Position numbers and translations under genes: made by a program. 64,000 nucleotides of DNA, taken from sequence record OR228459.1. One strand, 5' to 3'. Positions 44,748 through 63,632 of the stretch are shown here, piece by piece. Below the pieces are notes generated by a model, which was not told the origin of the DNA, made no database searches, and saw only the letters and a list, made by a program, of their open reading frames with translations. Source of the DNA: Klebsiella phage fENko-Kae01. Numbering within the stretch: the first letter of the stretch is position 1; each line of letters starts with the position of its first letter.

Positions 44748-44767
44748 CCACCAGCTTAAGCTGGTGG
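44748..44767. repeat. perfect 20-bp palindrome carrying Chi in both orientations (CCACCAGCTTAAGCTGGTGG)
   Basis: Read directly. Contains 5'-GCTGGTGG-3' and its reverse complement. Confidence 0.8.
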
Positions 44768-44949
44768 ATGTGGTTAGAATAATAAGAAGGGGAATCCCCA
44801 ATCATACGATGAACTATATTCAATTCTACCAGTACTGCGAATAGTTACTCCACAAGAATGAGAAGACTGTTGTAGTACTGAACTTTTTATGACGAGAAAA
44901 TTTGAATAGATTTTGGGTGTACTTATCCTGTACTCTGGACGGATTAAGG

Positions 44950-45065
44950 GCGTGTTTGATTCTCATTCGCATATAAGAATGATAAACTTTCTCAACATGA
45001 GAATGGTTCTCAGTTGCAAATAAGAATAGTTCTCAAATGAGAATAATAATGATTATCGTTTTCAG
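44950..45065. promoter_or_regulatory. cluster of Fur-box-like / GAGAAT-ATTCTC palindromic repeats
   Basis: aagaatgataaac, tgagaatggttctca, aagaatagttctcaaatgagaataataatgattatcg. The last resembles the Fur box GATAATGATAATCATTATC. Confidence 0.35.
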
Positions 45066-45269
45066 TACTAGACTAATTTTTCCATTGGCTAGCCTACCGC
45101 GACGGAATATAATATTCCGGCAGTATCACGAATCAGCTTGTTTTAAATCTGCCGTTATTATCTCAATATCTGGGTAGAATGTCAAGCTAATATTTTAAAA
45201 AATAAATGCTTGACACGTTGGCAGTACTTTGCTATTATATACACATAGCAAGAACAATGCTCAAGCCCA

Positions 45270-45362
45270 CAGGGTGCGGAGGTGTATTCGTTAAAAGCTA
45301 AATGCGAATGATTATCATTTCGCTCATATGATACATTTCCGCACCCTCTAGGGTCTCCGCTT
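45270..45362. repeat. inverted pair of the ACCCACAGGGTGC element flanking a Fur-box-like palindrome
   Basis: CCACAGGGTGCGGAGG ... gcgAATGATTATCATTtcg ... TTCCGCACCCTCTAGGG. Confidence 0.5.
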
Positions 45363-45476
45363 TCTCGCGTCTATATAGTAATTATACGGTAATGCGGTTT
45401 ATGCGTCAAGTACTTTTTTAAAGAAAATCGAAAATAATTTAGTACTATATGTATATAAGGAAGGAAAAAGAATTTT

Positions 45477-45515
45477 CAAAAAGTACTTGCATTCTAATTT
45501 AACCTATTGCATAAT
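45477..45515 (+). promoter_or_regulatory. early-type promoter (AAAAAGTACTTGCAT...CATAAT)
   Basis: aaaaagtacttgcattctaatttaacctattgcataat, upstream of 45560. Confidence 0.45.
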
Positions 45516-45559
45516 AGCTACATCGAAACGAGATACACAAACACATTAAGGAAAACGAT

Positions 45560-45793
45560 ATGATTCGCATTGTTCGCATTAATTACTCTACCGGTGAAGC
45601 TGATAAAGTAGCGGTTATTGTATCAGAAAAGAATGATGATCATCTACACAATACGCTGATGCGTTTTGTTAGTGCGGTTGACCGTTGGGCTAGTATTGAG
45701 TACTTAGAAACGTTTAAAGTCCCTGCCGTCCAGCTTAACGGGCATGATATTAAAGCAATTTGGAATGCTGACGAAATGATCGCGAACATGTAA
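45560..45793 (+). CDS. hypothetical small protein (77 aa)
   Basis: AAGGAAAA RBS. Confidence 0.55.
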   Translation: MIRIVRINYSTGEADKVAVIVSEKNDDHLHNTLMRFVSAVDRWASIEYLETFKVPAVQLNGHDIKAIWNADEMIANM

Positions 45794-45884
45794 TTATTTC
45801 AAGTACTATCAAAATTTACTTGACTTACTTTGATAGTACTTTATAATACTTACATACAAACGAAGTACTATTAAGGAAAGCATT

Positions 45885-46016
45885 ATGATCACTATCGAGA
45901 AAATCCGTTTAGCAGTAGAAGAACTGATCGCGGCTGGCTGGATTGTCGCAGAAAGTGAAGAAGAAATTAACATTGTAGTAAATGGTATGTATTCAGTTAT
46001 GACAAACGTGGAGTAA
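45885..46016 (+). CDS. small hypothetical protein (43 aa, not in ORF track)
   Basis: Own promoter cassette (ttgact...tttataatacttacatacaaacgaagtactattaaggaaag) plus a TAAGGAAA RBS, identical in arrangement to the next gene. Confidence 0.5.
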   Translation: MITIEKIRLAVEELIAAGWIVAESEEEINIVVNGMYSVMTNVE

Positions 46017-46098
46017 GTTAGTATTAAAAGTACTTGCATTTACTTAGCGAGTACTTTATAATACTTACATACAAACGAAACACTATTAAGGAAATATC

Positions 46099-46716
46099 AT
46101 GGAAAACATTATCGACGTTATCAAGTCTGTTTCTTATGCTGATCTGAATGAAGCACAAAAAGAAAAAGCTATTGAGATCATGCGAGAGTTAGAGAATCAA
46201 GAAATGACTCCGTTTTGGTCTGTAGATATTACTGATCAATGGAAAGAAACTTTAGACACTGAATACGGCATTACTGATGCAGTGATTTATTGGTCTGGTT
46301 TTTGTTCACAAGGTGACGGTGCATCGATTAGTACTGAATACTATATTGATATTGAGAAGTTTTTACGTAAATGTAAAGCGTGGTCAAAATTCCGTGTACT
46401 GCACAAAATTATTGACCGTGAAGAAATTCATGCTAAGATTGATCGTAGCTCAAGCCGTTACAATCATGAAAACACTGTAAGCGGTAGCGTAGAGCTTGAT
46501 TATAACATTGATTGGACGGCGAAGCAGGAAAGCGAAGCTGAACGCTTAGAAGAATTTTTGACCGAAACTATTCGCGAACTTTCTTGTAAGCTGTATAAAG
46601 AACTTGATAATGAGAATGATTATCAAAACAGCGATGATGCCCTTTGGTCTACCATTGAAGCAAATGAATATGATTTTGCTGTAAACTCAAACGGCGACGT
46701 TTTGCGTATCGCCTAA
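46099..46716 (+). CDS. hypothetical acidic protein (205 aa)
   Basis: Duplicate of the upstream promoter cassette. TAAGGAAA RBS. Confidence 0.6.
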   Translation: MENIIDVIKSVSYADLNEAQKEKAIEIMRELENQEMTPFWSVDITDQWKETLDTEYGITDAVIYWSGFCSQGDGASISTEYYIDIEKFLRKCKAWSKFRVLHKIIDREEIHAKIDRSSSRYNHENTVSGSVELDYNIDWTAKQESEAERLEEFLTETIRELSCKLYKELDNENDYQNSDDALWSTIEANEYDFAVNSNGDVLRIA

Positions 46717-46733
46717 AGTACTGACATACTGTA

Positions 46734-46764
46734 AAACGCTCTATAACGCATTGTAGGGCGTTTT
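46734..46764 (+). terminator. putative rho-independent terminator
   Basis: AACGC...GCGTTTT hairpin. Confidence 0.4.
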
Positions 46765-47008
46765 AAGGAATAGCAGTATCATTTATCATCTTAATTAATT
46801 AAACGGCGTAGACGGCGATTTATGAGCAAACAAGATATATTGAAAGGGGATGTTTTATACTGGTTAGATCCTGATGATGGGATCTGTTCTGGATGGGTAA
46901 CAGTATTAGACGTTAATACTACAGTACTGGTAAAAGGTGCAACGGCAGAATTTGAAGTGCTACCCGAAGAACTTTATTCGCATGAAGTTTAAAAAGTACT
47001 TGCAAAGT

Positions 47009-47066
47009 AAATCTAAAAGCGTATAATGATTTGCATAGGGGGAAACATCTTCCCCCCACTATTAAG
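47009..47066 (+). promoter_or_regulatory. promoter (TTGCAA-16-TATAAT) + conserved 5'-leader hairpin type A (GGGGGAAacatcTTCCCCC)
   Basis: Member of a 10-copy leader family. Confidence 0.6.
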
Positions 47067-47076
47067 AGAAACGATT

Positions 47077-47517
47077 ATGACTATCTACTATCTGACTTAT
47101 AAAACCGCCGACAATGTAACTGATGCTAATGTGACCGCAAACACGGTACAGGAAGCAATGGAAGTACTGAAAGCGGAACTACCTGATATTCAGATCGTTT
47201 GTGTAGTTGATACCGAAACGAATCTTAAAACTATTATTGACCACTATGATTATTTCCGTGGGCGTAAGTTACAGGACTGGTATCATATCGAAATAGAAAC
47301 ACGTGAACTACCAGAAGAACAACAGCACTTTGAGCAGGGTACTAGCATTTGGGTTACTACCGATAAACGCATATATTTCTGTTCACGCATACACGTTAAC
47401 AAGCGTGTTAAAATTGGGGCAGATTCATATAGTGGACTGTTTACAAATAGTAACCTACTAAATGACAAGTACATAAAAGTTTATGAGCGTTTTGGAACTG
47501 ATATTTACGCTTCATAA
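47077..47517 (+). CDS. hypothetical protein (146 aa)
   Basis: Track ORF 47026..47517 trimmed to ATG 47077, which follows an AAGAGAAA RBS. The upstream part of the track ORF is the leader element. Confidence 0.55.
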   Translation: MTIYYLTYKTADNVTDANVTANTVQEAMEVLKAELPDIQIVCVVDTETNLKTIIDHYDYFRGRKLQDWYHIEIETRELPEEQQHFEQGTSIWVTTDKRIYFCSRIHVNKRVKIGADSYSGLFTNSNLLNDKYIKVYERFGTDIYAS

Positions 47518-47525
47518 TATCACAA

Positions 47526-47560
47526 AGGGGAAGCAATTGCTTCCCTGTTTATTTGTACAG
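47526..47560 (+). terminator. rho-independent terminator (GGGAAGCaattGCTTCCC + tgtttattt)
   Basis: Perfect palindromic stem with a T-rich tail. A near-copy lies at 55214. Confidence 0.6.
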
Positions 47561-47817
47561 TACTATAATCTATAGATACAATACCGCACCCCGTGGGCTA
47601 ATGTGTTTTCATGGGTATTATTATGCCAGTACTACAAACATTTGTCAATCATTATTTTCAATTAATTTAAACGCACTGTAACACTGTATAAGGCGTTTTG
47701 TTATTAAGGTAAGCAAACGTATTGAGTACTATCTAAAAGGCCGTTGTGGGCTTGCTGGTGGCGTTGTGTTGTAGTATTGAAATATAAGGAAAATATAAAA
47801 AAGGCTGTCAATGATTA

Positions 47818-47940
47818 AAAAAGTACTTGACGGATTGATTTAGTACTGTCATAATGTATCACATAGAGCGGCGGGATGGATAAACATTCCTAAGTAGACA
47901 GCCAGTAAGTCATACGAAAGACTGGTGCCGAACTGAAAGA
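47818..47940 (+). ncRNA. orphan promoter + ~80-nt structured ORF-free transcript (candidate sRNA)
   Basis: AAAAAGTACTTGACGG-18-TCATAAT at 47818-47858. Downstream region has the hairpin CCAGTaagtcatacgaaagaCTGG and no ORF, then runs into the next promoter at 47949. Confidence 0.3.
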
Positions 47941-48046
47941 AAGATTGAAAAGAGTTTTAAAAAGTACTTGACAAGCTGGTGGGAAATTGAGATAATGACC
48001 CCGTAGACAGCAAACAACCTAATTAAACTTTAAGAGGAAATATACA

Positions 48047-48634
48047 ATGACTACTACTACTGAAAATGCACGTGTTACCCTGAAATCTGCACTGGAAGCT
48101 GGCGACGTTAAAACCCTTGCTGTTATCCTTGCGAAAGTTGGTCATGATAAAGACGGCGTATCTAAATTGGGCTTGACTTTCTCACTGGCGGTTAAGGAAG
48201 CGAAGGAAGTACTTAAAGAGCAAGCCAAAGCAGCAGAAGAAGCTGCACGTCAGGCAGCAGAACGCCGCGAAGCTAAAAAGGCTGCACGTCAAGCCGAAGA
48301 AGAAAAGCGTCAGGCTGAGATCAAGGCAGAAAAAGAAAATATGCTCAAGTTCCTCATGGATACGGTTAACGGTATGGGCTTAGACCTTGAGGCGGCAGAA
48401 GCGGCAGCAGAAGCGGCAATTGTTAAAAAGTACGGCGATGTTAACAAAGTACCTAAGTATACTTTTAACCGTGTAGCGGTGATTGTAGACGGTAAAGAAT
48501 ACAACATGCCAACTTCTGGGAACATGGTAGAAGTACTTAAAAATGCACTTGAAGCAAGCGGTAAATCGCGTAAAGAGTTTATCATCGAACACGCGAAAGA
48601 CAAGGCAGAAGCGGAAGCGGCATTCGCTGAATAA
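48047..48634 (+). CDS. H-NS-like DNA-binding protein (195 aa)
   Basis: C-terminus KYTFNRVAVIVDGKEYNMPTSGNMVEVLKNALEASGKSRKEFIIEH aligns to the E. coli H-NS C-terminal domain ([40 protein letters not shown]). N-terminal part is coiled-coil with an Ala/Glu/Lys-rich linker. Strong promoter and RBS. Confidence 0.5.
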   Translation: MTTTTENARVTLKSALEAGDVKTLAVILAKVGHDKDGVSKLGLTFSLAVKEAKEVLKEQAKAAEEAARQAAERREAKKAARQAEEEKRQAEIKAEKENMLKFLMDTVNGMGLDLEAAEAAAEAAIVKKYGDVNKVPKYTFNRVAVIVDGKEYNMPTSGNMVEVLKNALEASGKSRKEFIIEHAKDKAEAEAAFAE

Positions 48635-48651
48635 TAACAGTACTAAACTAT

Positions 48652-48680
48652 AGGCGGCCTAAGTGGTCGCCTTTTTTTAA
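48652..48680 (+). terminator. rho-independent terminator
   Basis: GGCGGCCtaagtgGTCGCC + ttttttt. Confidence 0.55.
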
Positions 48681-48692
48681 TTGGGGGATTAT

Positions 48693-48953
48693 ATGGCTGT
48701 AGGATTCGCGAAAGACGGGGCAGAACAAGACGAGATTTTAGCGGTCATAAACGCCGCTGTAAGCCACGCAAGGAATCAGATAGGGGATAGTACTATTACA
48801 AGTAGAACGCACTGCCTAGACTGTTCTAGGACTATTCCTGAGCGTAGACGGGAAGTAGTAAAGGGTGTTAAGTACTGCGTAGAGTGTCAGGCTGATCATG
48901 ATAGTATATTTAAAAGAGATCCGCGTAATTGTTGGCACAGATCTATGAGATAG
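48693..48953 (+). CDS. TraR/DksA-family C4 zinc-finger protein (86 aa)
   Basis: CLDCSRTIPERRREVVKGVKYCVECQ, i.e. CxxC-17-CxxC with the IPE.RR motif typical of TraR/DksA. Track ORF 48681 trimmed to ATG 48693, which follows a GGGGGA RBS. Confidence 0.6.
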   Translation: MAVGFAKDGAEQDEILAVINAAVSHARNQIGDSTITSRTHCLDCSRTIPERRREVVKGVKYCVECQADHDSIFKRDPRNCWHRSMR

Positions 48954-48957
48954 TACT

Positions 48958-49013
48958 TGACATACTTTCTGATTAAAGTATAATGATTTGCATAGAGGGA
49001 AACATCTTCCTTC
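48958..49013 (+). promoter_or_regulatory. promoter + leader hairpin type A (GAGGGAAacatcTTCCTTC)
   Basis: Leader family copy. Confidence 0.5.
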
Positions 49014-49034
49014 ACTAATTAAGGAAATAGAATC

Positions 49035-49307
49035 ATGCGTACACCAATGACCCGCGAAGAAATACACACAGTACTGACAACTAACATTCAGGACTGGAAG
49101 AAATACGCAGATATTAACGAAGCTCAAGACTTGAACAATGAGCTAGATGGTGAAGATCTGGACGTAATTTGTTCCCCTGAGTTTTATGATGATATTCATT
49201 CCGATGATGATGTTTGGAATGTACTGGAAAAGCATTTCCTCGATACTGATTTAAGTATCTACTCGCGTGATACTTTTATTTTAATTCACAACATTTATAA
49301 CAAATAA
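49035..49307 (+). CDS. hypothetical acidic small protein (90 aa)
   Basis: TAAGGAAA RBS. Confidence 0.55.
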   Translation: MRTPMTREEIHTVLTTNIQDWKKYADINEAQDLNNELDGEDLDVICSPEFYDDIHSDDDVWNVLEKHFLDTDLSIYSRDTFILIHNIYNK

Positions 49308-49310
49308 TTG

Positions 49311-49367
49311 TTGACTTACTTATATAGTACTGTATAATGGTTTGCATAGGGGGAAACATCTTCCCCC
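49311..49367 (+). promoter_or_regulatory. promoter (TTGACT-16-TATAAT) + leader hairpin type A
   Basis: Leader family copy. Confidence 0.6.
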
Positions 49368-49386
49368 ATCAATTAAGGAAAAGAAA

Positions 49387-49596
49387 ATGACTCGATACAC
49401 TGTAGAAGTACGTACTACTAAAAACATTGCTACTGATGTGATTCGTTATTATAAGATGGTTTGTGGTGTTGCTCGCCGTATTAGTAAAGCGGATTATGAC
49501 AAGCTGGATCGCGAAGCTGATGGTATGGATTGTTTTTATACAGTAAACACAAAAACGCATACAAAGCAATTTAAAACATTGTCTTATTACATGTAA
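49387..49596 (+). CDS. hypothetical small protein (69 aa)
   Basis: Track ORF 49342..49596 trimmed to ATG 49387, which follows a TAAGGAAAAG RBS. Confidence 0.55.
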   Translation: MTRYTVEVRTTKNIATDVIRYYKMVCGVARRISKADYDKLDREADGMDCFYTVNTKTHTKQFKTLSYYM

Positions 49597-49757
49597 AAAG
49601 TTTTACTCCAGTACTTGACAATAGATGCGAGTACTGGCATAATAACTTTATTGAAACGAAATACTATTAAGGAAATATCATGGCTAATCTCATTGTTCGA
49701 TTGTATGAAGATTGTTTCTACTTTTAGTATTGTGGGAAACCTATATCCGTTAAAGAG

Positions 49758-50069
49758 ATGATCGCATCGGGCTATATGTTATCTAAGCATGATCACACTG
49801 GATTCATGGCTGAAATGGTTGCGGCTAGTTATAAGTTTGGTGAAGAATGGGAAGCACAATATTTTCCGGCTGTCAATGCAATGATTAAGCGGTTGGCAGA
49901 ACACACTGAGTTTATGGAATTTTGGACTGTTTTAAAAATGGTTGACGTGAATCAGAATGGGGAAACGTGTCAGCCATACGCACATTTTGACGCTGGGGAA
50001 GATATTAGCACAATTTGGAAATGGTTGGAAGATAAATTTACAACAATTAAAATTGCAGATTACTTGTAA
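49758..50069 (+). CDS. hypothetical protein (103 aa); possible longer form interrupted by in-frame TAG
   Basis: ORF with an AAAGAG RBS. An in-frame ATG at 49680 with a perfect TAAGGAAA RBS is separated from it by a TAG at 49725-49727. Confidence 0.45.
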   Translation: MIASGYMLSKHDHTGFMAEMVAASYKFGEEWEAQYFPAVNAMIKRLAEHTEFMEFWTVLKMVDVNQNGETCQPYAHFDAGEDISTIWKWLEDKFTTIKIADYL

Positions 50070-50075
50070 AAGTAC

Positions 50076-50132
50076 TTGCATTACTATCTGAAAAGCGTAT
50101 AATGGTTTGCATAGGGGGAAACATCTTCCCCC
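50076..50132 (+). promoter_or_regulatory. promoter (TTGCAT-16-TATAAT) + leader hairpin type A
   Basis: Leader family copy. Confidence 0.6.
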
Positions 50133-50153
50133 ACTAACTAAGAGAAGAATATC

Positions 50154-50534
50154 ATGGCTAATCAAATCACTCCAGCACAGACCTTCAATAAATTCAGTAC
50201 TGAAATCGTATTGAAAGAGTATGTGCCAGATTATGGTTGGACTGATGCATGTGTATGCACTGATGTAGCAGATGCAAAGCAACGCATTAAAGATTATCGT
50301 GCGGAGGGTTTACAGGTTAAAACTGCCCGTCGCCGTGTACTTAACAAAGATGCTTTCTTATGTCAAGCTCTTTTAAACTTCTGCCGTGACTACTATCGCC
50401 GTACTGGTGGATTATGGCCTAATGAGGTTGAAGTACTGAAATCTAACGGTAAAGTAAAATTTACCTTGACTTTAAAAGAAATTGAGGAAGTACTTGGTGA
50501 TGATTGTTTTTTAGTAACTTCACAGCCAGCATAA
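50154..50534 (+). CDS. hypothetical protein (126 aa)
   Basis: AAGAGAAG RBS. Confidence 0.55.
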   Translation: MANQITPAQTFNKFSTEIVLKEYVPDYGWTDACVCTDVADAKQRIKDYRAEGLQVKTARRRVLNKDAFLCQALLNFCRDYYRRTGGLWPNEVEVLKSNGKVKFTLTLKEIEEVLGDDCFLVTSQPA

Positions 50535-50543
50535 AAAAGTACT

Positions 50544-50576
50544 TGACACATAACGGGGATATGATACAATATCCCC
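50544..50576 (+). promoter_or_regulatory. promoter with -10-centred palindrome (GGGGATATgatacaATATCCCC)
   Basis: TTGACA, then an inverted repeat enclosing the -10. Confidence 0.5.
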
Positions 50577-50603
50577 ATATTGAAAAGTAATGGAAGTACT
50601 GAA

Positions 50604-50795
50604 ATGAATTATCAAAAGGTTAGCAAGCGAGTAGTTGAACTCTCTAAGAAAGCACGTAAAGAGTATACCTTAGAACGTTCAATTAACAACTATCATTTAA
50701 AGCAAGGTGATAAGTTTATTGTTATTGACGAACCTTTGGAAATCGTGTATATTGTAGTTAATGCGATGATTCGTGATAAAACGAGGATTAAGTAA
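50604..50795 (+). CDS. hypothetical small protein (63 aa)
   Basis: Track ORF 50580 (TTG start) trimmed to ATG 50604. Confidence 0.45.
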   Translation: MNYQKVSKRVVELSKKARKEYTLERSINNYHLKQGDKFIVIDEPLEIVYIVVNAMIRDKTRIK

Positions 50796-51050
50796 ATGCG
50801 TACATTAGACCAACTTATTGACCCTAATACGTCAGCACGTCGATCAATGGTTACTATCGGCGGTAATGGTAAACAACACTGGAGTGGTTACATTTGCTTT
50901 ATTGTTGGTGGAAAAATGTATGAGCGGGTAGTATATCACAAAGAGATTAATTATATACTATTCCGTAAAGAAGTCATAGCAGTCGATCCTACCGCCCTAA
51001 AACCGATTGCAGGGGCATGGAACAAAGAATCGCTGTACCTTACAGCTTAA
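50796..51050 (+). CDS. hypothetical small protein (84 aa)
   Basis: Start coupled to the upstream stop (TAAATG). AGGAT RBS. Confidence 0.5.
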   Translation: MRTLDQLIDPNTSARRSMVTIGGNGKQHWSGYICFIVGGKMYERVVYHKEINYILFRKEVIAVDPTALKPIAGAWNKESLYLTA

Positions 51051-51099
51051 CCAATAAAAGGCCGCTACGTGCGGCCTATCGCGTTCTAGAGGGTATATT

Positions 51100-55211: not shown

Positions 55212-55213
55212 TA

Positions 55214-57001: not shown

Positions 57002-57212
57002 TATAATACTTTTATCAAATCAAGTGGAGTACTAAAAAGATGATTACACCTATTGCACCAATTCACAAGACAGTGTATAATACTTATAGTACTCCAAAGC
57101 AGCAACATATTATCGAGGAACTGAAAGAACAGAAAAAAGAAGTAAAAAGTACTGGTAACCGAATCGATATTAAAGTATAATACTTACATCAACCACAAAG
57201 AGGAATACAAAA

Positions 57213-57551
57213 ATGGCTATTACTTCTATCTTCTGCAACACCCGAAACGAAGCACGTCAGGCTAAAATCGATTTCAACGGTAAAATTGTTGACAATGGTT
57301 CTGATGCACCCAAGGGACAGCGTTGGGAAGTACAATACGAAGTAGCCCCCGTATCTGATGCCATCGCGGAACTTGCAGCAATCATGCAAGCGGAAGTACA
57401 AGACATGGCACTAGAAGAAGTGTCTCCACGTGAGATTATGGGTCTTCCACGTCCTGTAAGCAAGAATAAAAAAACCCGTGCTGTGATCATGAAAGATCGC
57501 AAAGGTAATTCAGTTACTGTACAGGTTCGTCGTCGCCGCATTACTGCCTAA
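57213..57551 (+). CDS. hypothetical basic-tailed protein (112 aa)
   Basis: AAGAGGAATA RBS downstream of the tataatacttacatcaacc cassette tail. Confidence 0.55.
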   Translation: MAITSIFCNTRNEARQAKIDFNGKIVDNGSDAPKGQRWEVQYEVAPVSDAIAELAAIMQAEVQDMALEEVSPREIMGLPRPVSKNKKTRAVIMKDRKGNSVTVQVRRRRITA

Positions 57552-57591
57552 CCGAAAGGGGGAGCAATCCCCCAAACTTTTAAGAGGATTT

Positions 57592-57843
57592 ATGAAGAAG
57601 CAAGTACAACTAATTAATGGTAATTTCATGCGATTGCATTATAAACCGCAAAAGAAAATCATTGAGAAAGCTACAAAGGTAGCAAATGATTTTGTTAGTG
57701 GGACAGTTCGCCCCCGTAAACTATCTAACGGATTGTTTCAAGTACTGGATATTAGCAGAACAGAACGTATCGTAATTGATAAGGAAAAGCAAATACATTT
57801 AATGAGTCACGAAAAGTACAATGATTTTGTGAATCAGCGTTGA
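57592..57843 (+). CDS. hypothetical small protein (83 aa)
   Basis: AAGAGGA RBS. Preceded by the hairpin GGGGGAGCAATCCCCC. Confidence 0.5.
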   Translation: MKKQVQLINGNFMRLHYKPQKKIIEKATKVANDFVSGTVRPRKLSNGLFQVLDISRTERIVIDKEKQIHLMSHEKYNDFVNQR

Positions 57844-57897
57844 CAGACTACCGACAACATAGTATAATACTTTCATCAACTAAACGATGGTTCTAAA

Positions 57898-58287
57898 ATG
57901 AAAAATATTGTTTCTGCTATCGCTATCGCTGTTATGTTTTCTTCAACTCCAGTTATGGCATACACTGTTAATCTGAATGAATTGACAGATTGGGGAAATC
58001 AAATGCGTGATCGCTTTGCAGTACCAGACCATATCCAGCCGCAGCAAAAACAAGGTAGTGAAATGTTATGCCGTGGGGTAATGACTAACGAGCAAACCGG
58101 ACAACAAATCCGCGAACAATTCAGTACTAGTGGTGAACGTTCGGTATCGGGTAATGATATCATCTATCATGATGAAGATGAAACCGGAAGCACTACATTG
58201 CAAATTAATGCAAAAACTGGTAAAGGCTTTATTACGATGATGGACACTGAAAAAGTTATCGTAACTGGTAATGTAGTTTGCAAATAA
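57898..58287 (+). CDS. secreted protein (129 aa)
   Basis: Signal peptide MKNIVSAIAIAVMFSSTPVMA. Confidence 0.55.
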   Translation: MKNIVSAIAIAVMFSSTPVMAYTVNLNELTDWGNQMRDRFAVPDHIQPQQKQGSEMLCRGVMTNEQTGQQIREQFSTSGERSVSGNDIIYHDEDETGSTTLQINAKTGKGFITMMDTEKVIVTGNVVCK

Positions 58288-58297
58288 AGTACTAAAA

Positions 58298-58335
58298 AGG
58301 GGTTGACTTCGGTCGGCCCTTTTGCTATTATATAT
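58298..58335 (+). promoter_or_regulatory. terminator-promoter module (GGGGTTGACttcgGTCGGCCC)
   Basis: Same family as 13061. Followed by the TAACCCACAGGGTG element. Confidence 0.55.
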
Positions 58336-58400
58336 CCCATAGAAACAAGTTAACCCACAGGGTGGCGTAGTCCGTCCAAAATTTATTAAAAGTATAATAT

Positions 58401-58655
58401 ATGGAAATATGGAAAACAATCACTGATTCCCCTAATTATGAAGTAAGTAATTTAGGAAATATACGAAAAATACGTGATAATAAAGGTATGGCACAAACTA
58501 ATAGTAAACTTTCAGATGATGATATTAAATTCATCCGAGCTAATTTTAAAAAATGTGATCCTGTATATGGTGGAATACCACTAGCAAAGCGATTTGGTGT
58601 ATATAAAAGTACTATATACAAAATTGTACAAGGACGTGCATGGAAGCATATATAA
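58401..58655 (+). CDS. orphan NUMOD4 + HTH protein, homing-endonuclease-associated DNA-binding module without nuclease domain (84 aa)
   Basis: MEIWKTITDSPNYEVSNLGNIRKI matches the NUMOD4 signature (WK.I...YEVSN.G.VR). C-terminus LAKRFGVYKSTIYKIVQGRAWKHI is the HTH typical of HNH homing-endonuclease C-termini. No SD sequence upstream. Confidence 0.5.
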   Translation: MEIWKTITDSPNYEVSNLGNIRKIRDNKGMAQTNSKLSDDDIKFIRANFKKCDPVYGGIPLAKRFGVYKSTIYKIVQGRAWKHI

Positions 58656-58692
58656 ATATATTCATAATACCATTTTATATAAGGAGTATATT

Positions 58693-59226
58693 ATGCCGGG
58701 TAAATTTCAAGATAAAAATGGTGGGTTAATTGCAGGACATAGTGATCGCTGGTCTGATGAAAACCGCCGTAAAAATAGTTTTAATGCTGGTGCTGGAAGT
58801 CGAGCTAGTCGAAATCAAGGACTAGGACAAAAAGGACTCGACAATACTAAAACAGATACCATTGTAGATACTTCTAGGATGAAACCAGAAGAAAAACTAA
58901 AGTACTTCCAATCTTTGGGATTACTTGGTCATCAAGAGAAAGGTTCTAAAGAGCCTCCAAAAGCAGCACCACAAAAACCAATGCCTACCGATAGTAAATC
59001 ACTTATTAGTACTTTACAAGATCAATGGAAAGATGCGTTTAAAGGCGATGTACGCCATTCTAAGCGACTTATTGCAGAACTTAAGGACGTTGCCCCAGCT
59101 AAGATTAAAAAAGCTCTACAAGCTGCTTACAGGGCCACACAAGAGGTTACCGCACGTGAAGACGACCCTCTAACAATCGTTGAATATATCAGTGATGCTA
59201 TTGTTCCATTTACATATGAAGATTGA
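58693..59226 (+). CDS. hypothetical disordered Lys/Gly-rich protein (177 aa)
   Basis: Track ORF 58594 trimmed to ATG 58693, which follows a TAAGGAG RBS. Confidence 0.55.
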   Translation: MPGKFQDKNGGLIAGHSDRWSDENRRKNSFNAGAGSRASRNQGLGQKGLDNTKTDTIVDTSRMKPEEKLKYFQSLGLLGHQEKGSKEPPKAAPQKPMPTDSKSLISTLQDQWKDAFKGDVRHSKRLIAELKDVAPAKIKKALQAAYRATQEVTAREDDPLTIVEYISDAIVPFTYED

Positions 59227-59231
59227 AATAA

Positions 59232-59268
59232 AAGGTTGACATGAGTCAGCCTTTTTTGCTATCATAGT
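59232..59268 (+). promoter_or_regulatory. terminator-promoter module (GGTTGACatgaGTCAGCC)
   Basis: Same family as 13061. Confidence 0.5.
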
Positions 59269-59292
59269 CCTACACCAATAGGAGATAGTAAC

Positions 59293-59556
59293 ATGAAATA
59301 CTTACTAATCATCGCCGCATTATTCAGTACTCAAGCAATGGCAACAGATATGGTTTGTAGTGCTGATGGTTTCCAAACTGTATTCAAGGTAGATGGCAAC
59401 ACGCTTATTGACACAAACGAACACGTAGTAGCTGAAGAAATCAGTACTGGTAAGTTTATGGCACAAGATCAGTTCGGTGAAGTAGTTTATACTATTCACG
59501 GAAATAAGATTGTAATGCAATTCAGTGGCGTTATCAAAGAGTACAATTGCAAATGA
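59293..59556 (+). CDS. secreted protein (87 aa)
   Basis: Signal peptide MKYLLIIAALFSTQAMA. TAGGAG RBS. Confidence 0.55.
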   Translation: MKYLLIIAALFSTQAMATDMVCSADGFQTVFKVDGNTLIDTNEHVVAEEISTGKFMAQDQFGEVVYTIHGNKIVMQFSGVIKEYNCK

Positions 59557-59747
59557 TTGTACAAGTAACACTAAAAGGATTGAAGCCCGGAGAAGATGAC
59601 TACGAAACACATGTAGCCACTATTTCCGGGTTGACAATGGATGAGATTGATGGTAATATACTGTCATACATCTACGAATGGCGTAATGCAAACGGGTATT
59701 ACAAAATGAAATATATTCATAAAGAGGTAATCTCATGCGATAACTAA
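59553..59747 (+). CDS. hypothetical small protein (64 aa)
   Basis: Track ORF 59547 (TTG start) trimmed to ATG 59553, which overlaps the upstream stop (ATGA). Confidence 0.5.
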   Translation: MIVQVTLKGLKPGEDDYETHVATISGLTMDEIDGNILSYIYEWRNANGYYKMKYIHKEVISCDN

Positions 59748-59763
59748 CACAGGAGATTACACA

Positions 59764-59979
59764 ATGCCAACTCATTCACTAGTACTTAATGGGATTCGAT
59801 TCAAAATGACTGAGGGTGCATTGCAAAGTACTAACACGCAATTAGTACTTGATAAACTCACAAAAGAACAATGTGATGGTATCCTTCGCGAAGCAAATCG
59901 CATTAAGTCAACTGTATCAAATCACCCGGTTAAGCGTCAATTACTTCAGGGGATCATTATGGGATGTTTGCGTAAATGA
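59764..59979 (+). CDS. hypothetical small protein (71 aa)
   Basis: CAGGAG RBS. Confidence 0.5.
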   Translation: MPTHSLVLNGIRFKMTEGALQSTNTQLVLDKLTKEQCDGILREANRIKSTVSNHPVKRQLLQGIIMGCLRK

Positions 59980-60128
59980 TTTATCAACAAATTATTGCAG
60001 TACTGAAAACACTTGACTACGGAAATGCAATCCGTTATGCTAGTGCTAACGCCTTTGAACTCGCTCAAATGTATGAGCAAGGTAGTACCATTGATGAGCT
60101 GGTGGAGGTTTGTCTCAGTCATAAATAA
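59976..60128 (+). CDS. small hypothetical protein (50 aa, not in ORF track)
   Basis: ATGA overlap with the upstream stop. Replaces the track ORF 60013..60255, which overlaps the next well-supported gene. Confidence 0.4.
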   Translation: MIYQQIIAVLKTLDYGNAIRYASANAFELAQMYEQGSTIDELVEVCLSHK

Positions 60129-60154
60129 TCTTGTAATTATTACAGGAGATCATT

Positions 60155-60427
60155 ATGACAGACTTAAACGCAATCAAGCAATGGAGTACTATCCCATTAA
60201 ACGAACTACCGCAACTACTAAAGCAACAAGGTTTTCAATTCGTACCACGTTTTAGTACTGAAGATCATCGTATCTTCGTATCTCAAGACGGACAATATTT
60301 GATTAATATTATCCGTAATACTGGAAAAGTATACAGTACTAAAAATCAGAAATCACCTTTGCATATTTTTGGTATTCGTAATGGTGAGATCCCAAAAGGT
60401 GCAGATAAAGCATTCAGAACTGAATAA
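60155..60427 (+). CDS. hypothetical protein (90 aa)
   Basis: ACAGGAG RBS. Confidence 0.55.
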   Translation: MTDLNAIKQWSTIPLNELPQLLKQQGFQFVPRFSTEDHRIFVSQDGQYLINIIRNTGKVYSTKNQKSPLHIFGIRNGEIPKGADKAFRTE

Positions 60428-60432
60428 TAAAA

Positions 60433-60470
60433 AAAGGGTTGACTTAGGTCGGCCCTTTTTGTTATTATAT
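60433..60470 (+). promoter_or_regulatory. terminator-promoter module (GGGTTGACttagGTCGGCCC)
   Basis: Same family as 13061. Confidence 0.55.
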
Positions 60471-60496
60471 ACTTATTGAAGCGAAGGAGATAGAAC

Positions 60497-61087
60497 ATGT
60501 ACGTCACTAAAGCAGCAAAGAAACACTTAAAAGAACTTGACAAGTTACCAACTAATAAACAAATGTTAAAGTACTGTCGAGAAAATTTAACACGTTTGGG
60601 TAAGGGATCAAGTCGTGAAGTTTTTGCATTATCTGATACATTAGTAATCAAGATCGCTTTAGGTGGTGTAGGTGTAAAACAGAATGAAAATGAGATTCGT
60701 ATCTGGAATCTAGTTAGTTATTCATTTACTGGATTTAAGAGATCATTCGCTAAAGTACTGGTAAATTCATGCCACTGGAAAGAATTCTATATCGTCATGG
60801 AGCGTTTAAATACACAAACCGTGTCGCGGTCAATCTTTAATACAAGTACTGTTAGAGCGTGGCGTATGGATCGTACCGCAATGCATCCAATTGCTAAACG
60901 TATATTCAAAGATGTACAAGCCACTGATGATAATGCTTTTACTAATAACATAGCAGATATAACTCCACGAAATATGGGAACATCAAAAACAGGTGTTGTC
61001 AAGATGTTGGATTATGGTTTTAGTACTCCTATATGGAATGGACTCGCTAACGGTACATTAAAGAATAGAGAATTACTTATAAAATAG
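60497..61087 (+). CDS. small protein-kinase-like protein (196 aa)
   Basis: Gly-loop-like LGKGSSREVF and VIKIA (VAIK-like Lys). Catalytic-loop-like NIADITPRNMG (D.KP.N). DFG-like VKMLDYGFS. GAAGGAG RBS. Confidence 0.45.
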   Translation: MYVTKAAKKHLKELDKLPTNKQMLKYCRENLTRLGKGSSREVFALSDTLVIKIALGGVGVKQNENEIRIWNLVSYSFTGFKRSFAKVLVNSCHWKEFYIVMERLNTQTVSRSIFNTSTVRAWRMDRTAMHPIAKRIFKDVQATDDNAFTNNIADITPRNMGTSKTGVVKMLDYGFSTPIWNGLANGTLKNRELLIK

Positions 61088-61090
61088 TGC

Positions 61091-61127
61091 TTGACTACTT
61101 TATGCTGGTGGGATATACTTATCCCAT
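61091..61127 (+). promoter_or_regulatory. promoter (TTGACT; Chi octamer in spacer) with -10-centred palindrome (GGGATATacttATCCC)
   Basis: ttgactactttatGCTGGTGGgatatacttatccc. Confidence 0.5.
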
Positions 61128-61149
61128 CAACAACAAAGAGGAATACAAA

Positions 61150-61395
61150 ATGTTTAAAGTACGTAAATGGTCTGACTCTAACTCCCGCCCATATGATGTT
61201 GTTTATGTAGATGATATTCGAAACAATATCCACTATCAACCCGGCGTAGAATTTAGTACGATTGAAGGTGCTTATAAACATAAAGAAGTACTAATCAAAA
61301 GTACTGATGAAGATAGTATAGAATTTATCCGTAATCATTGGCCCACTGATGGTGCCGCTGATGAGGATAATTCAGAAGAACCAAAAATAGATTAA
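61150..61395 (+). CDS. hypothetical acidic-tailed protein (81 aa)
   Basis: Track ORF 61087 trimmed to ATG 61150, which follows an AAAGAGGAATA RBS. Confidence 0.5.
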   Translation: MFKVRKWSDSNSRPYDVVYVDDIRNNIHYQPGVEFSTIEGAYKHKEVLIKSTDEDSIEFIRNHWPTDGAADEDNSEEPKID

Positions 61396-61399
61396 TAAA

Positions 61400-61436
61400 A
61401 AGAGGTTGACTTCGGTCAGCCTTTTTTGTATTATAT
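61400..61436 (+). promoter_or_regulatory. terminator-promoter module (GAGGTTGACttcgGTCAGCC)
   Basis: Same family as 13061. Followed by the CTAACCCACAGGGTGC element. Confidence 0.55.
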
Positions 61437-61545
61437 ATATCAAGAAAACAGCTAACCCACAGGGTGCATAAATCCGTCTTTCAAATGTATATTTTTTCAT
61501 CGAAGTACTAAAACGAATACGAAACAAATAAATTTCAAAAAGTAC

Positions 61546-61608
61546 TTGACCACTATTACCGATTGTCGTATAATGTTTTACATCGAGAGGGGAAATGGTT
61601 CTACTCTC
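61546..61608 (+). promoter_or_regulatory. promoter (TTGACC-17-TATAAT) + leader hairpin type B (GAGAGgggaaatggttctaCTCTC)
   Basis: Leader family copy with a covarying stem. Confidence 0.6.
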
Positions 61609-61627
61609 TAACTTAAGGAATTAAATC

Positions 61628-62149
61628 ATGATTACTACTCCAGTACGCGATATGTTTAACGTTAACCCCAACACTGGTATTGCTTATGGATACATCAACG
61701 CGAACAACGTAAACAGTGAAGTACTGAATGAAATTTTCTGCAATGGTATTGATGTAGCTCGACTTGAAGCAGATATTGACTTCGCCAAACGTTATGATTT
61801 CGTAGTACCTGATCAAAAGGAATCAGAAGATTATACTGCTTATCTTGAGCGTGTACAATCCGATATGCTTGACTTCCTTAACAATCTGGGCGATGATGTG
61901 ATGGAAGAAGTGGAAGCACATGATCGCGAATATGAAGAGTTTACAGGTCATGTACACGCCGCCACAGTAGATAAGACTACAGTACTTTATAACACTGATA
62001 ACAATACTATCTGTGTTATGGATGGCATCAATGTTGGTTTTTTCTATGCTTGCTCTCCATGCTGCCCGAATGCTGGTGATCTTGATAGTGCTGGTGGAAG
62101 TGTAGAAACTTACGATGTACCTGTAAGCTGGCGTGAACTGGATTACTAA
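61628..62149 (+). CDS. hypothetical acidic protein (173 aa)
   Basis: TTAAGGAA RBS. Confidence 0.6.
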   Translation: MITTPVRDMFNVNPNTGIAYGYINANNVNSEVLNEIFCNGIDVARLEADIDFAKRYDFVVPDQKESEDYTAYLERVQSDMLDFLNNLGDDVMEEVEAHDREYEEFTGHVHAATVDKTTVLYNTDNNTICVMDGINVGFFYACSPCCPNAGDLDSAGGSVETYDVPVSWRELDY

Positions 62150-62150
62150 T

Positions 62151-62184
62151 TGACAACAACAAAGGGATAGTATATACTATCCCT
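62151..62184 (+). promoter_or_regulatory. promoter with -10-centred palindrome (GGGATAGTATatACTATCCC)
   Basis: TTGACA, then an inverted repeat enclosing the -10. Confidence 0.5.
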
Positions 62185-62208
62185 AACTTAAGAAAAGAGG
62201 AAATCAAA

Positions 62209-62388
62209 ATGGTTCACGTTGATCTTGAAGTACTGAAAAAAGTATGGTACGACATTGGCTATAAAAATATTAGCTGGACGGATAACCAGTACATCGAGCT
62301 TAAGGCACTGGATAACTGGCAGCGTAATGAAGTACTGAAAGCACACAAAAAAGGTGTAGATGATCGCTTTAACTTTCCTGTACTTTAA
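62209..62388 (+). CDS. small hypothetical protein (59 aa, not in ORF track)
   Basis: AAGAGGAAATC RBS downstream of the 62151 promoter. Confidence 0.5.
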   Translation: MVHVDLEVLKKVWYDIGYKNISWTDNQYIELKALDNWQRNEVLKAHKKGVDDRFNFPVL

Positions 62389-62401
62389 TAGAAAAAAGTA
62401 C

Positions 62402-62464
62402 TTGCATAGTATTCTGATTACTGTATAATGTTTTTCATAGAGAGGGGAATGGTTCTTCTCTCTA
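62402..62464 (+). promoter_or_regulatory. promoter (TTGCAT-16-TATAAT) + leader hairpin type B (TAGAGAGgggaatggttcttCTCTCTA)
   Basis: Leader family copy with a covarying stem. Confidence 0.6.
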
Positions 62465-62480
62465 AATTAAGGAAAACATT

Positions 62481-62663
62481 ATGACTAACAAATATCGTAC
62501 TCAGTTCTTCATGGTTGATGGTGCTCGATTAACTGCTGCTGACGTACACGAGTACTACGGAGTGAGCATTGATGATCTTCTGGTGATGCATGAAGATGAA
62601 ACACAATTCTTCCATGCTCATGGGTACGAGGTTAAAGTAACACGCTGCCCAGCATACAATTAA
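62481..62663 (+). CDS. hypothetical small protein (60 aa)
   Basis: TAAGGAAAAC RBS. Confidence 0.55.
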   Translation: MTNKYRTQFFMVDGARLTAADVHEYYGVSIDDLLVMHEDETQFFHAHGYEVKVTRCPAYN

Positions 62664-62708
62664 TCATTTGGGGAGAGAGGTAATACTCTCCCATATTAAG
62701 GAACGTCC

Positions 62709-62975
62709 ATGAAACTGATTAACACACTAACGCGATTGTTTGGCACTGATAATGTTGACGATTGGAACGATGTTAACGATGAAGATAATGTGATTGATTA
62801 CATCGTTATCTACCACAACAATGATGGTGATAATGAGTGTGAGCCTGATTACTTCCTACGCCACTACGACAACGGATCATACCAGCTTAATGATCTCAGT
62901 GGCAACGTAATTCACACTGGTAATGATCTGGCAGTACTAAAGAAAGTACTAAAGAATTTACCAAAAAGTAATTGA
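62709..62975 (+). CDS. hypothetical acidic protein (88 aa)
   Basis: TAAGGAAC RBS. Preceded by the GGGAGAGaggtaatacTCTCCC palindrome. Confidence 0.55.
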   Translation: MKLINTLTRLFGTDNVDDWNDVNDEDNVIDYIVIYHNNDGDNECEPDYFLRHYDNGSYQLNDLSGNVIHTGNDLAVLKKVLKNLPKSN

Positions 62976-63100
62976 CTATAATCTGCTGGTGGAGTATTAT
63001 ATATCCATTGGCAGATAAGCCACTAACCCACGGGGTGCATAGATCCATCTATTGGATTTAAGTACTAAAACCTTTTAAAAAAAGAATAAAGAAAGTACTT
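62973..63100 (+). ncRNA. orphan promoter (TTGACT-17-TATTAT with Chi in spacer) + conserved leader element, no ORF (candidate sRNA)
   Basis: The transcript would begin with cattggcagataagccactaacccacggggtgcatagATCCAtctatTGGAT, near-identical to the 53375 copy. It runs into the next promoter at 63099. Confidence 0.3.
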
Positions 63101-63160
63101 GCATTACTATCTCAGTACTGTATAATGTTTTACATCGAGAGGGGGAAATGGTTCTCCCTC
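63099..63160 (+). promoter_or_regulatory. promoter (TTGCAT-16-TATAAT) + leader hairpin type B (GAGGGggaaatggttctCCCTC)
   Basis: Leader family copy with a covarying stem. Confidence 0.6.
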
Positions 63161-63182
63161 CTAATCCAAAAGGATACGCACT

Positions 63183-63584
63183 ATGTTCACATTAAACCAT
63201 TTCTCCGATGTTGTTGCTGTTGCTAAAACCTTCGGCGTTGATGCACTTCGATACGCGATGGATAACAGCACCGTATCCGTTGGTGCATGTCACACTATCC
63301 GTGACTGCATGAAGTGGGCTGCTAACAAAGTTGTTAGTATTGATAACTTCAACGATGGTAACAATGAGTATAGCATTGATGCTGTATTCTCTACCGAGAA
63401 CGTAGCTGGTCTGTACATCACTGGCCTCGATGATATTCGTATCTCTCGTACTGGTTTCGGTTCCTTCTACGGCGATGCACGTGAAGCAATGGAGAAGGGT
63501 ATTATCAATGCCGAGCAGTTAGGCAAAGTACTAAAAGAGATTGCATTACGCAATGAAGCAGCTAAAGCCTTTGGTTTGCTGTAA
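63183..63584 (+). CDS. hypothetical protein (133 aa)
   Basis: AAAAGGATACG RBS. High-expression-like codon usage. Confidence 0.6.
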   Translation: MFTLNHFSDVVAVAKTFGVDALRYAMDNSTVSVGACHTIRDCMKWAANKVVSIDNFNDGNNEYSIDAVFSTENVAGLYITGLDDIRISRTGFGSFYGDAREAMEKGIINAEQLGKVLKEIALRNEAAKAFGLL

Positions 63585-63600
63585 TACATAACACACTATA

Positions 63601-63632
63601 CAAGGCCACTGGTTAACGCTGGTGGCCTTTTA
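63601..63632 (+). terminator. rho-independent terminator containing Chi (GGCCACtggttaacgctgGTGGCC + tttt)
   Basis: Hairpin plus T-tract. Confidence 0.55.

Follow-up and report, generated by a model that had tools for sequence, protein, structure and literature searches.

Co-oriented Chi octamers in a putative direct terminal repeat of a RaK2/121Q-like jumbo myovirus

Analysis of a 64-kb stretch of DNA from Klebsiella phage fENko-Kae01 (sequence record OR228459.1; the whole 64,000-nucleotide stretch is called the window and is numbered from its first base) revealed an accumulation of the octamer GCTGGTGG, the Chi sequence of Escherichia coli, in its right-hand part. Recognition of this octamer by RecBCD is established in E. 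coli and assumed in other Enterobacterales. The closest full genome is that of the Salmonella phage 7t3 (MK773491), which is collinear with the window and shares 98.8% identity over window positions 20000-52536; the right part of the window is nearer to the phages SE_PL, Munch and PHA46. Judged by sequence similarity, the window is part of an approximately 350-kb jumbo myovirus of the RaK2/121Q-like group. Most octamers lie in a region that we refer to as the block (44217-64000, 44220-64000 in the null simulations, or 44.2-64.0 kb), which carries about 43-51 small plus-strand open reading frames (ORFs), depending on the length cut-off, and ~38 strong sigma-70-type promoters, several of them with the -35 element within a terminator-like hairpin. 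The block diverges from a minus-strand array of RCC1-like genes at 30441-43933, a tandem series of about ten paralogous ORFs of ~380-400 amino acids; in relatives, the corresponding genes bear the annotation 'DNA condensation protein', 'regulator of chromosome condensation' or RCC1-like. A Gly-rich minus-strand ORF (39570-40373) interrupts this array and holds three octamers as in-frame GCT-GGT-GG codons.

Counting both strands, the window contains 19 copies of GCTGGTGG, compared with 0.48 +/- 0.72 in dinucleotide-preserving shuffles, and this number was reached in 0 of 100 shuffles. The block accounts for 12 plus-strand and two minus-strand copies, and the copies outside it lie at 19394 on the plus strand and at 16203, 39808, 39868 and 40045 on the minus strand, the last three being those of the Gly-rich ORF. 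A sequence-only reading that preceded this work had listed eleven plus-strand copies in the block, ten of which were placed correctly; one had been given as 55479 instead of 55469, and the copy at 60098 had been overlooked. Likewise, the copy at 44748 had been taken for the only one in reverse orientation, and a second minus-strand copy was located at 51277. The sites and associated features of the block are as follows.

44217..64000, plus strand: putative direct terminal repeat (DTR) of ~19.8 kb, with position and organisation like the DTRs of the phages G17, fEgEco12 and CBB
44748..44767: perfect 20-bp palindrome CCACCAGC-TTAA-GCTGGTGG, a back-to-back pair of Chi octamers (minus-strand copy 44748-44755, plus-strand copy 44760-44767), ~530 bp inside the approximate left repeat border
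47754..47761, plus strand: intergenic Chi octamer, kept in 7t3, with a similar context at 17284 in the phage Hallingskeid
47975..47982, plus strand: Chi octamer in a promoter spacer, 1 nt past the -35 (promoter 47968-47996, TTGACA-17-GATAAT)
51277..51284, minus strand: antisense Chi octamer within a plus-strand ORF, not in 7t3, which has a substitution patch instead
52329..52336, plus strand: coding Chi octamer, GCT-GGT-GGT (Ala-Gly-Gly), in ORF 52170-52460
53456..53463, plus strand: Chi octamer in a spacer, 2 nt upstream of the -10 (promoter 53444-53471, TTGCTT-16-TATAAT); the paralogous promoter at 55366 has AGTACTG in its place
55469..55476, plus strand: coding Chi octamer, GCT-GGT-GGA, in ORF 55427-55966
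56216..56223, plus strand: coding Chi octamer, GCT-GGT-GGT, in ORF 56024-56248
60098..60105, plus strand: coding Chi octamer, (GA)G-CTG-GTG-G(AG), in ORF 59976-60128
61104..61111, plus strand: Chi octamer in a spacer, 2 nt upstream of the -10 (promoter 61091-61119, TTGACT-17-TATACT); its 3' half doubles as the left arm of a hairpin across the -10, and in 7t3 the octamer is intact and neighbouring spacer bases are changed
62090..62097, plus strand: coding Chi octamer, GCT-GGT-GGA, in ORF 61628-62149
62985..62992, plus strand: Chi octamer in a spacer, 2 nt upstream of the -10 (promoter 62972-63000, TTGACT-17-TATTAT)
63604..63627, plus strand: terminator-like stem-loop GGCCAC-TGGTTAACGCTG-GTGGCC followed by TTTT, holding the Chi octamer nearest to the right end (63618-63625, 375 bp from base 64000)
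63977..64000, plus strand: right-border (terminus) motif CCTTAGTGAAGGCCAGTCATGCCT, the last window base being the predicted terminal base

The enrichment belongs to the exact octamer, as each of its one-mismatch variants occurs in at most 8 copies. When all octamers of the window were ranked by enrichment, GCTGGTGG was the first word not derived from AGTACT; within the block, 20 octamers outrank it, AGTACT-derived words and -10 words being commoner. In a codon-aware null of 1000 runs, for which every protein and the codon usage of the block were kept and the intergenic bases shuffled, 0.74 plus-strand and 0.04 minus-strand copies were expected, compared with 12 and 2 observed, and the highest count in any run was 4. 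The over-representation described by the sequence-only reading for the right-hand block is thus real, by the shuffles as well as by a control that preserves codon usage. Seven of the 12 plus-strand sites are non-coding in a block that is 76% coding: three lie by a -10, one by a -35, two in hairpins (44760 and 63618) and one in plain intergenic sequence (47754). The earlier picture of six non-coding copies at a fixed place before the -10 therefore holds with respect to their non-coding location, while the fixed place applies to no more than the three sites situated 2 nt upstream of a -10. The other five plus-strand sites are found inside ORFs in two reading frames, four of them as in-frame GCT-GGT-GGN in the same sense as the gene. 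No conservation was seen in the bases directly flanking the 12 sites, which argues against their origin by duplication of a longer element.

All 12 plus-strand sites of the window are kept in 7t3, and a comparison of the two sequences gave 0 substitutions in 96 octamer positions versus 29 in 720 positions of the +/-30-nt flanks (Fisher p = 0.025), suggesting that the octamers are under purifying selection. Where octamers were gained or lost between the window and 7t3, the change coincides with tight patches of 3-5 substitutions in near-identical sequence: CCACCAGC at window 51277-51284 corresponds to TTCCTGAG in 7t3 (70358), and TCGGGTGA at window ~55325-55332 to GCTGGTGG in 7t3 (75282). The patches at 51277 and ~55325 exceed the expectation from single point mutations.

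The whole 7t3 genome carries 24 copies of GCTGGTGG on the plus strand and seven on the minus strand, and 14 of the 24 plus-strand copies fall within 63.8-83.6 kb, a region that makes up 5.9% of the genome (binomial p = 7e-12). Applied to this equivalent of the block, the codon-aware null predicted 0.92 plus-strand and 0.02 minus-strand copies versus 14 and 1 observed; for the other 328 kb of the genome the figures were 3.0 and 2.6 versus 10 and 6. Copies outside the 7t3 block are mostly in-frame GCT-GGT-GGN (Ala-Gly-Gly) in the sense of their gene and represent an ordinary codon effect. The octamer signal is a local co-oriented array, and the genome-wide enrichment that the sequence-only reading had envisaged was ruled out by this whole-genome count, which shows confinement to one ~20-kb block. 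Such confinement strengthens the interpretation of the octamers as Chi, because the block has the characteristics of a DTR.

A mosaic junction was noticed at ~52450-52540, to the left of which the window is 98.7% identical to 7t3. Right of ~52540, SE_PL, Munch and PHA46 are closer (97-98%), and identity to 7t3 drops to 89-95% for ~4 kb and is back to ~97.5% further right. The alignment pattern indicates a recombination event inside the putative terminal-repeat block; the Chi octamer at 52329 lies just left of the junction.

The block is situated between the RCC1-like gene array and a paralogue array and is bounded by a conserved border motif, as in the DTRs of RaK2-like phages. A homologous block opens the sequence record in the phages G17, WPEC3, Hallingskeid and EC.P1, and those records are 15-35 kb longer than their siblings. 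For the E. coli phage G17, for which a long DTR has been reported (PMC6563267), we found positions 1-20668 to be identical (100%) to 350150-370817, corresponding to a repeat of 20,668 bp. The DTRs of the E. coli phage fEgEco12 measure 20,993 bp according to PhageTerm and were confirmed in restriction digests. Repeats of ~20 kb are the rule in Asteriusvirus: every phage whose termini have been determined has them, except for one report of 8.3 kb, which is possibly mis-assigned according to the authors (PMC13070987). A repeat of 22,456 bp was established for the Pectobacterium phage CBB by doubled read depth and pulsed-field gel electrophoresis (PMC5259590). The termini of fEgEco12 are identical in sequence to those of G17.

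Comparison of the right borders revealed GGGCGGGTAACCT before and TAGCGACT after the cut in G17, fEgEco12 and EC22.5-2, and GGCCAGTAACGCT before and TAGCGAGG after it in CBB, with TAGCGA following the cut in both cases. The corresponding sequence in 7t3 is GGCCAGTCATGCCT followed by TAGCCACC; this motif is single-copy in the whole 7t3 genome (at 83967) and places the border between 83983 and 83984. As 7t3 position 83983 corresponds to window position 64000, the border falls exactly at the last base of the window, which is the predicted right physical terminus (GTCATGCCT, followed by TAGCC in 7t3). The coincidence of the last base with the predicted terminal base suggests that the ends had been determined when the source record was deposited, and that its final 64 kb make up the window. 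The window lacks the exact terminus word of G17, TTACCCGCC, and a degenerate form of the border motif did match. An attempt to transfer the G17 repeat borders to the window by DNA similarity failed, as the two sequences resemble each other in no more than regulatory cassettes of 70-100 bp, each matching many places. The left border was placed near 44217, approximately, by aligning the region loosely with the left terminus shared by G17 and fEgEco12 (AGTAGGCAGAGGAAGTCT versus AGTAAGTACTAATGGAAGCT) and by a conserved patch ~190 nt inside. Taken by homology, the block at ~44.2-64.0 kb is a putative DTR of ~19.8 kb that holds every site of the array.

Close to this left border, two copies of AGTACTCCATCCTAAATC occur at 44352-44441, the first of which is followed by TTTTGGAGTAC, making an inverted repeat. 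They sit in the 800 bp of non-coding DNA that separate the RCC1-like array from the palindrome, and G17 and fEgEco12 have the conserved element ~190 nt inward from their left terminus. It may constitute a terminus-proximal signal.

Arrays of the same octamer recur in relatives infecting hosts of five genera (Salmonella, Escherichia, Klebsiella, Erwinia and Pectobacterium). G17 has nine co-oriented copies and the palindrome partner within 1-20668 and none in 20669-30000. In fEgEco12 the repeat (1-20993) holds ten plus-strand copies, of which the last is 1361 bp from the right border, and 20994-26000 holds none. EC22.5-2 shares this set of sites, and its border motif lies where the site spacing had predicted it. 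In the Erwinia phage Hallingskeid, 11 sense and 2 antisense copies were counted in the block, the first one 389 bp from the start of the record, and the final 28 kb of the record contain no copy of GCTGGTGG. The Klebsiella phage K64-1 has 9 sense and 1 antisense copies within 25 kb, and the CBB repeat contains 7 sense and 2 antisense copies, compared with 2 and 1 in the next 22.5 kb. Pooled over the window, G17, Hallingskeid and K64-1, the ratio of sense to antisense copies is 41:6 (p = 2e-7), with CBB adding 7:2. Among GC-rich octamers, GCTGGTGG alone reaches consistently high counts in the blocks of these four phages, and all words ranking above it are AGTACT-derived or -10 promoter words. 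A relative on a host with a different Chi sequence was not found, although the search (tblastn with the portal protein for RaK2-like relatives) was uninformative.

Since homology between the blocks is limited to short cassettes and there has been turnover of genes, positional orthology does not apply to most sites. It is clear for two of them, namely the palindrome and the terminator-like hairpin by the right end. The loop of the palindrome reads TTAA in the window and TTGT in the E. coli phages EC22.5-2, G17 (20064-20083, annotated as a terminator) and fEgEco12, where it occupies 578-597 with its minus-strand half 578 bp from the confirmed left end. Orthologues of the right-end hairpin (EC22.5-2 41999; Hallingskeid 389 bp from the start) have kept the loop and show compensating changes in the stem. 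As a diagnostic for such phages, the pattern CCACCAGC-N4-GCTGGTGG was rejected, as 46 mostly short and apparently unrelated viral contigs match it.

With a probability of roughly 65%, we consider the block to be the long DTR of a RaK2/121Q-like jumbo myovirus and its GCTGGTGG copies to be functional Chi sites under selection. The enrichment of the octamer, its confinement to the block, its co-orientation, its recurrence in diverged relatives and the homology of block and border to determined termini were observed directly; the presence of the repeat in the phage of the window, the action of RecBCD on it and the relative weight of protection and recombination are inferred. With the ends placed by homology, the sense copies face the right border, and the antisense copy of the palindrome faces the left one. 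After injection, the linear genome would expose two free ends to the host RecBCD. An enzyme entering from the right end (base 64000) would move leftward, meet the first active Chi after 375 bp and pass eleven more over the next 19 kb, so that recognition would be close to certain. For RecBCD entering from the left end (~44217), the palindrome with its minus-strand copy would lie ~530 bp ahead. On meeting Chi, the enzyme would cease degrading the 3'-ended strand and load RecA onto it, and the RecA-coated 3' tail would lie in the repeat and thus be homologous to the other repeat copy. Invasion of that copy could lead to circularisation, formation of concatemers or priming of replication, and the early genes in the repeat would be spared from degradation by RecBCD. 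We propose that the array is confined to the repeat because a Chi site outside it would leave the invading strand no partner on the same molecule.

The sequence-only reading had likewise suggested a role of Chi in end protection or in recruiting host recombination, and this core is retained, strengthened by the position of the right window edge, which matches that of the termini of three relatives; its genome-wide scope is given up, and its emphasis on promoters becomes secondary. The same match agrees with its view that the orientation suits RecBCD entering from the right-hand end. Its treatment of the reverse copy at 44748 as a mere palindrome partner is not upheld, as this copy lies ~530 bp from the left border, would face RecBCD entering there and is conserved in fEgEco12.

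Several observations weigh against the interpretation as functional Chi in a DTR. A repeat at both ends makes either orientation active at one of them, so that orientation as such is no test and only the co-orientation of the sites is informative. Within the repeat, site density does not rise significantly in the direction of the entry end (pooled Kolmogorov-Smirnov p = 0.23). The repeat in the lineage of the window is deduced by homology, and the four closest records (7t3, Munch, SE_PL and PHA46) were deposited without it. No border motif was found in the 50 kb of K64-1 examined, and its cluster was not linked to the border of a repeat; CBB shows a weak signal (7 inside versus 2 outside), albeit in the same direction, and the palindrome near the border is not present in Hallingskeid and CBB. 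Furthermore, the annotation of 7t3 lists UvsX-like, endonuclease VII and Dda proteins and an SbcCD-like gp46/47 pair, all T4-like recombination genes, and thus points to a recombination module of the phage's own. Among lambdoid phages, those rich in Chi tend to have neither a recombination module nor an anti-RecBCD gene (PMC12315714), and the present phage, by annotation, would differ in the first respect; such a lack is a correlate and not a defining feature of the mechanism. With regard to anti-RecBCD functions, a Pfam scan, which was not exhaustive, detected no Gam-, Abc2- or gp5.9-like protein among 20 repeat-encoded proteins, and an equally non-exhaustive PHROGs search detected no gp2-like end protector among 10 structural-gene proteins, seven of them encoded near a gp3-like gene.

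Besides aiding recombination, the terminal Chi array might act as a passive counter-defence, a role that we regard as doubtful. RecBCD would be switched rather than inhibited, and abortive systems that guard RecBCD (of the retron Ec48 type) would not be triggered. In addition, less of the injected DNA would be degraded by RecBCD into substrates for CRISPR spacer acquisition, and the conserved palindrome ~0.5 kb from the border would serve as a dedicated two-way Chi stop combined with a transcription terminator. Virulent jumbo phages with recombinases of their own would thereby possess an anti-defence strategy based on sequence alone.

Among the explanations that dispense with Chi activity, the one that survives best is that the octamer serves as a signal for the phage's own machinery, for example for terminase and packaging, a pause during injection, or replication and the processing of concatemers, and matches Chi by coincidence. 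Repeated signals near the ends are found in T5 and other phages with long terminal repeats, and the strict limitation of the octamer to the terminal repeat and its co-orientation in phages of several genera would fit such a function. We nevertheless judge it improbable: a chance match to the host Chi octamer would have a likelihood of ~1.5e-5, the sites are distributed across 20 kb and do not cluster at the cleavage borders, and the borders have a separate and different conserved motif. The turnover of site positions between lineages also fits a distributed signal better than a positioned one.

Even less probable is a role of the octamer as a promoter-spacer element or as an operator half-site for a host or phage regulator of early genes, with the palindrome at 44748-44767 as the full operator, an alternative that the sequence-only reading had raised. 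The spacers of the strong promoters make up 3.2% of the block and hold three of the 12 sites, or four if a weaker promoter is included (p = 6e-3 to 4e-4); three of the spacer sites are located exactly 2 nt upstream of the -10, and the perfect palindrome resembles a dimer-binding site. An alignment of the 38 strong plus-strand promoters of the block, however, revealed the octamer in the spacers of three, in addition to the one weaker promoter, and the promoter element was rejected as the main explanation. The spacer octamers are positioned at -15 to -22 in three cases and abut the -35 in the fourth, and in paralogous promoters the place of the octamer is taken by AGTACT or by a GGGRATA hairpin arm. 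Moreover, five sites lie within ORFs in two reading frames, the strong strand bias holds for the coding sites too, and most sites of EC22.5-2, Hallingskeid, K64-1 and CBB lie outside spacers. A regulator motif would be identical to the host Chi by chance in 1 of 65,536 cases. With more than 90% of the promoters lacking the octamer and its position not conserved in relatives, we read the spacers as cheap real estate: together with hairpin loops and Ala-Gly-Gly codons, they are the least costly places for an 8-mer in a tightly packed block. The octamer could still modulate those few promoters.

The remaining alternative, a compositional by-product of preferred GCT and GGT codons at Ala-Gly-Gly and of G-rich hairpin arms in the absence of selection on the octamer, accounts for the in-frame, gene-oriented GCT-GGT-GGN context of four of the five coding block sites and of most other sites in 7t3, for the three minus-strand copies at 39.8-40.1 kb in the Gly-rich ORF and for the rest of the 7t3 genome being ~2-3 times above the codon-aware null, but is hardly credible for the block, where it was ruled out by the null that preserves proteins and codon usage (0.74 expected versus 12), where seven sites are non-coding and the octamer is kept while its flanks diverge, and where the density is ~20 times that of the rest of the 7t3 genome.

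Terminal clusters of Chi have been described previously in two groups of phages. In P1, P7, D6 and NGUA22, Chi is concentrated near the terminally redundant ends (Subramaniam & Smith, bioRxiv 10.1101/2021.07.08.451572). P1 is a temperate phage of 94 kb with pac/headful packaging and variable ends, 31 of its 50 Chi sites are on the top strand, and in the proposed model, which the mechanism outlined above follows, RecBCD entering the injected end meets Chi, followed by RecA-dependent recombination between the terminal repeats (bioRxiv 10.1101/2021.07.08.451572); the dependence of P1 growth on RecBCD is documented. As in the P1 family, the host Chi is far over-represented in the present block, concentrated in DNA that is terminally repeated by homology, and independent of coding. 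In contrast, the present phage would be a virulent jumbo myovirus of ~350 kb with exact ~20-kb repeats (again by homology), it encodes its own T4-like recombination proteins, and its array has nearly all sites in one orientation with a single back-to-back pair by the other border, whereas P1 has Chi on both strands.

The second group comprises the lambdoid phage LLS, with 23 Chi sites clustered at the right end, 20 of which are in the active orientation, along with related lambdoid phages of the 'no Rec module' type (Genome Res 2025, PMC12315714), and the Pseudomonas phage MD8, which has an end array of a Pseudomonas Chi-like sequence (PMC12315714). The array described here resembles both in that the Chi of the host is co-oriented beside one physical end and would be active for RecBCD entering there, and its density and strand bias are like those of LLS (12:2 here, 20:3 in LLS). 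Phages of the LLS and MD8 type differ in being temperate siphoviruses of the cos type, with genomes of ~40-50 kb that lack terminal repeats, and unlike the LLS type the jumbo phage has UvsX-like and gp46/47-like genes. With regard to genome organisation, the closest parallels are the Asteriusvirus phages G17 and fEgEco12 and the Mimasvirus CBB, which share a block of ~20-22 kb of small early genes with sigma-70 promoters beside an RCC1-like array and the same border motif; unlike in these, no repeat has been reported for the Salmonella lineage (7t3, Munch, SE_PL and PHA46). The papers describing the repeats of G17, fEgEco12 and CBB make no mention of Chi or RecBCD (PMC6563267, PMC13070987, PMC5259590), the 2025 survey of Chi makes no mention of jumbo phages or Asteriusvirus (PMC12315714), and a full-text literature search combining jumbo phage, RecBCD and Chi returned nothing relevant. 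Thus, terminal Chi clusters are known from the P1 family and from LLS and MD8, and we found no earlier report for jumbo phages.

If the interpretation as functional terminal Chi holds, selection for such sites would extend from temperate P1-like and lambdoid phages to virulent jumbo myoviruses of ~350 kb and span at least five enterobacterial host genera. An array bounded by an exact 20-kb repeat, with ~330 kb of internal control sequence, offers a clear natural test of signal versus codon by-product. A co-oriented Chi block together with the border motif could also serve as a signature for locating ends and repeats in jumbo-phage assemblies that were deposited without them. The finding raises the question why a phage with its own T4-like recombination would engage the host RecBCD in the first minutes of infection.

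Further sequence elements were observed in the block and in the window. The palindromic hexamer AGTACT (ScaI site) occurs 248 times in the window, compared with ~22 expected, and 853 times in the whole 7t3 genome, compared with 117 expected. Its density is 6.3-6.5 per kb in the terminal-repeat block and ~2 per kb elsewhere, examples being 47961-47966, 52466-52471 and 54222-54227. In many promoters, one AGTACT overlaps the upstream edge of the -35 (AAAAGTACTTGACA) and another is located just before the -10 (AGTACTnTATAAT). The same AGTACT words head the octamer ranking in G17, Hallingskeid and K64-1, and the hexamer may serve as a genome-wide signal or as a promoter or UP-like element specific to the phage.

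At 58296-58323, 60431-60460 and 61398-61427 (and also at ~53328-53360), terminator-like stem-loops hold a TTGACT -35 in their stem or loop and are followed by TATTAT. These terminator-promoter cassettes recur between the small genes and belong to the small number of regions with DNA similarity to relatives. Promoter-early stem-loops (PeSLs) of T4-type phages are regulatory and recombination cassettes, and the cassettes of the block resemble them in consisting of a terminator-like hairpin that embeds the -35, followed by the -10, and in flanking small early genes in a fast-changing region. Unlike a PeSL seen as a regulatory cassette alone, they are the setting in which some of the Chi sites sit; to our knowledge, PeSLs have no known link to Chi. 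At 50553-50583, 52866-52895, 55975-56000 and 62163-62184, an inverted repeat spans the -10 (GGGRnTA...TATAAT/TATACT...TAnYCCC), placing it in a potential hairpin. Finally, the motif CCCACAGGGTGC (CCACGGGGTG in the window) was observed in the 5' leaders of repeat-block genes, sometimes ~20 nt upstream of a Chi octamer, for example at ~43575 in EC22.5-2 and ~930 in Hallingskeid, with related words near 63010-63030 in the window. It is present in 2-8 copies per block in all four phages compared and may represent a conserved leader RNA element.

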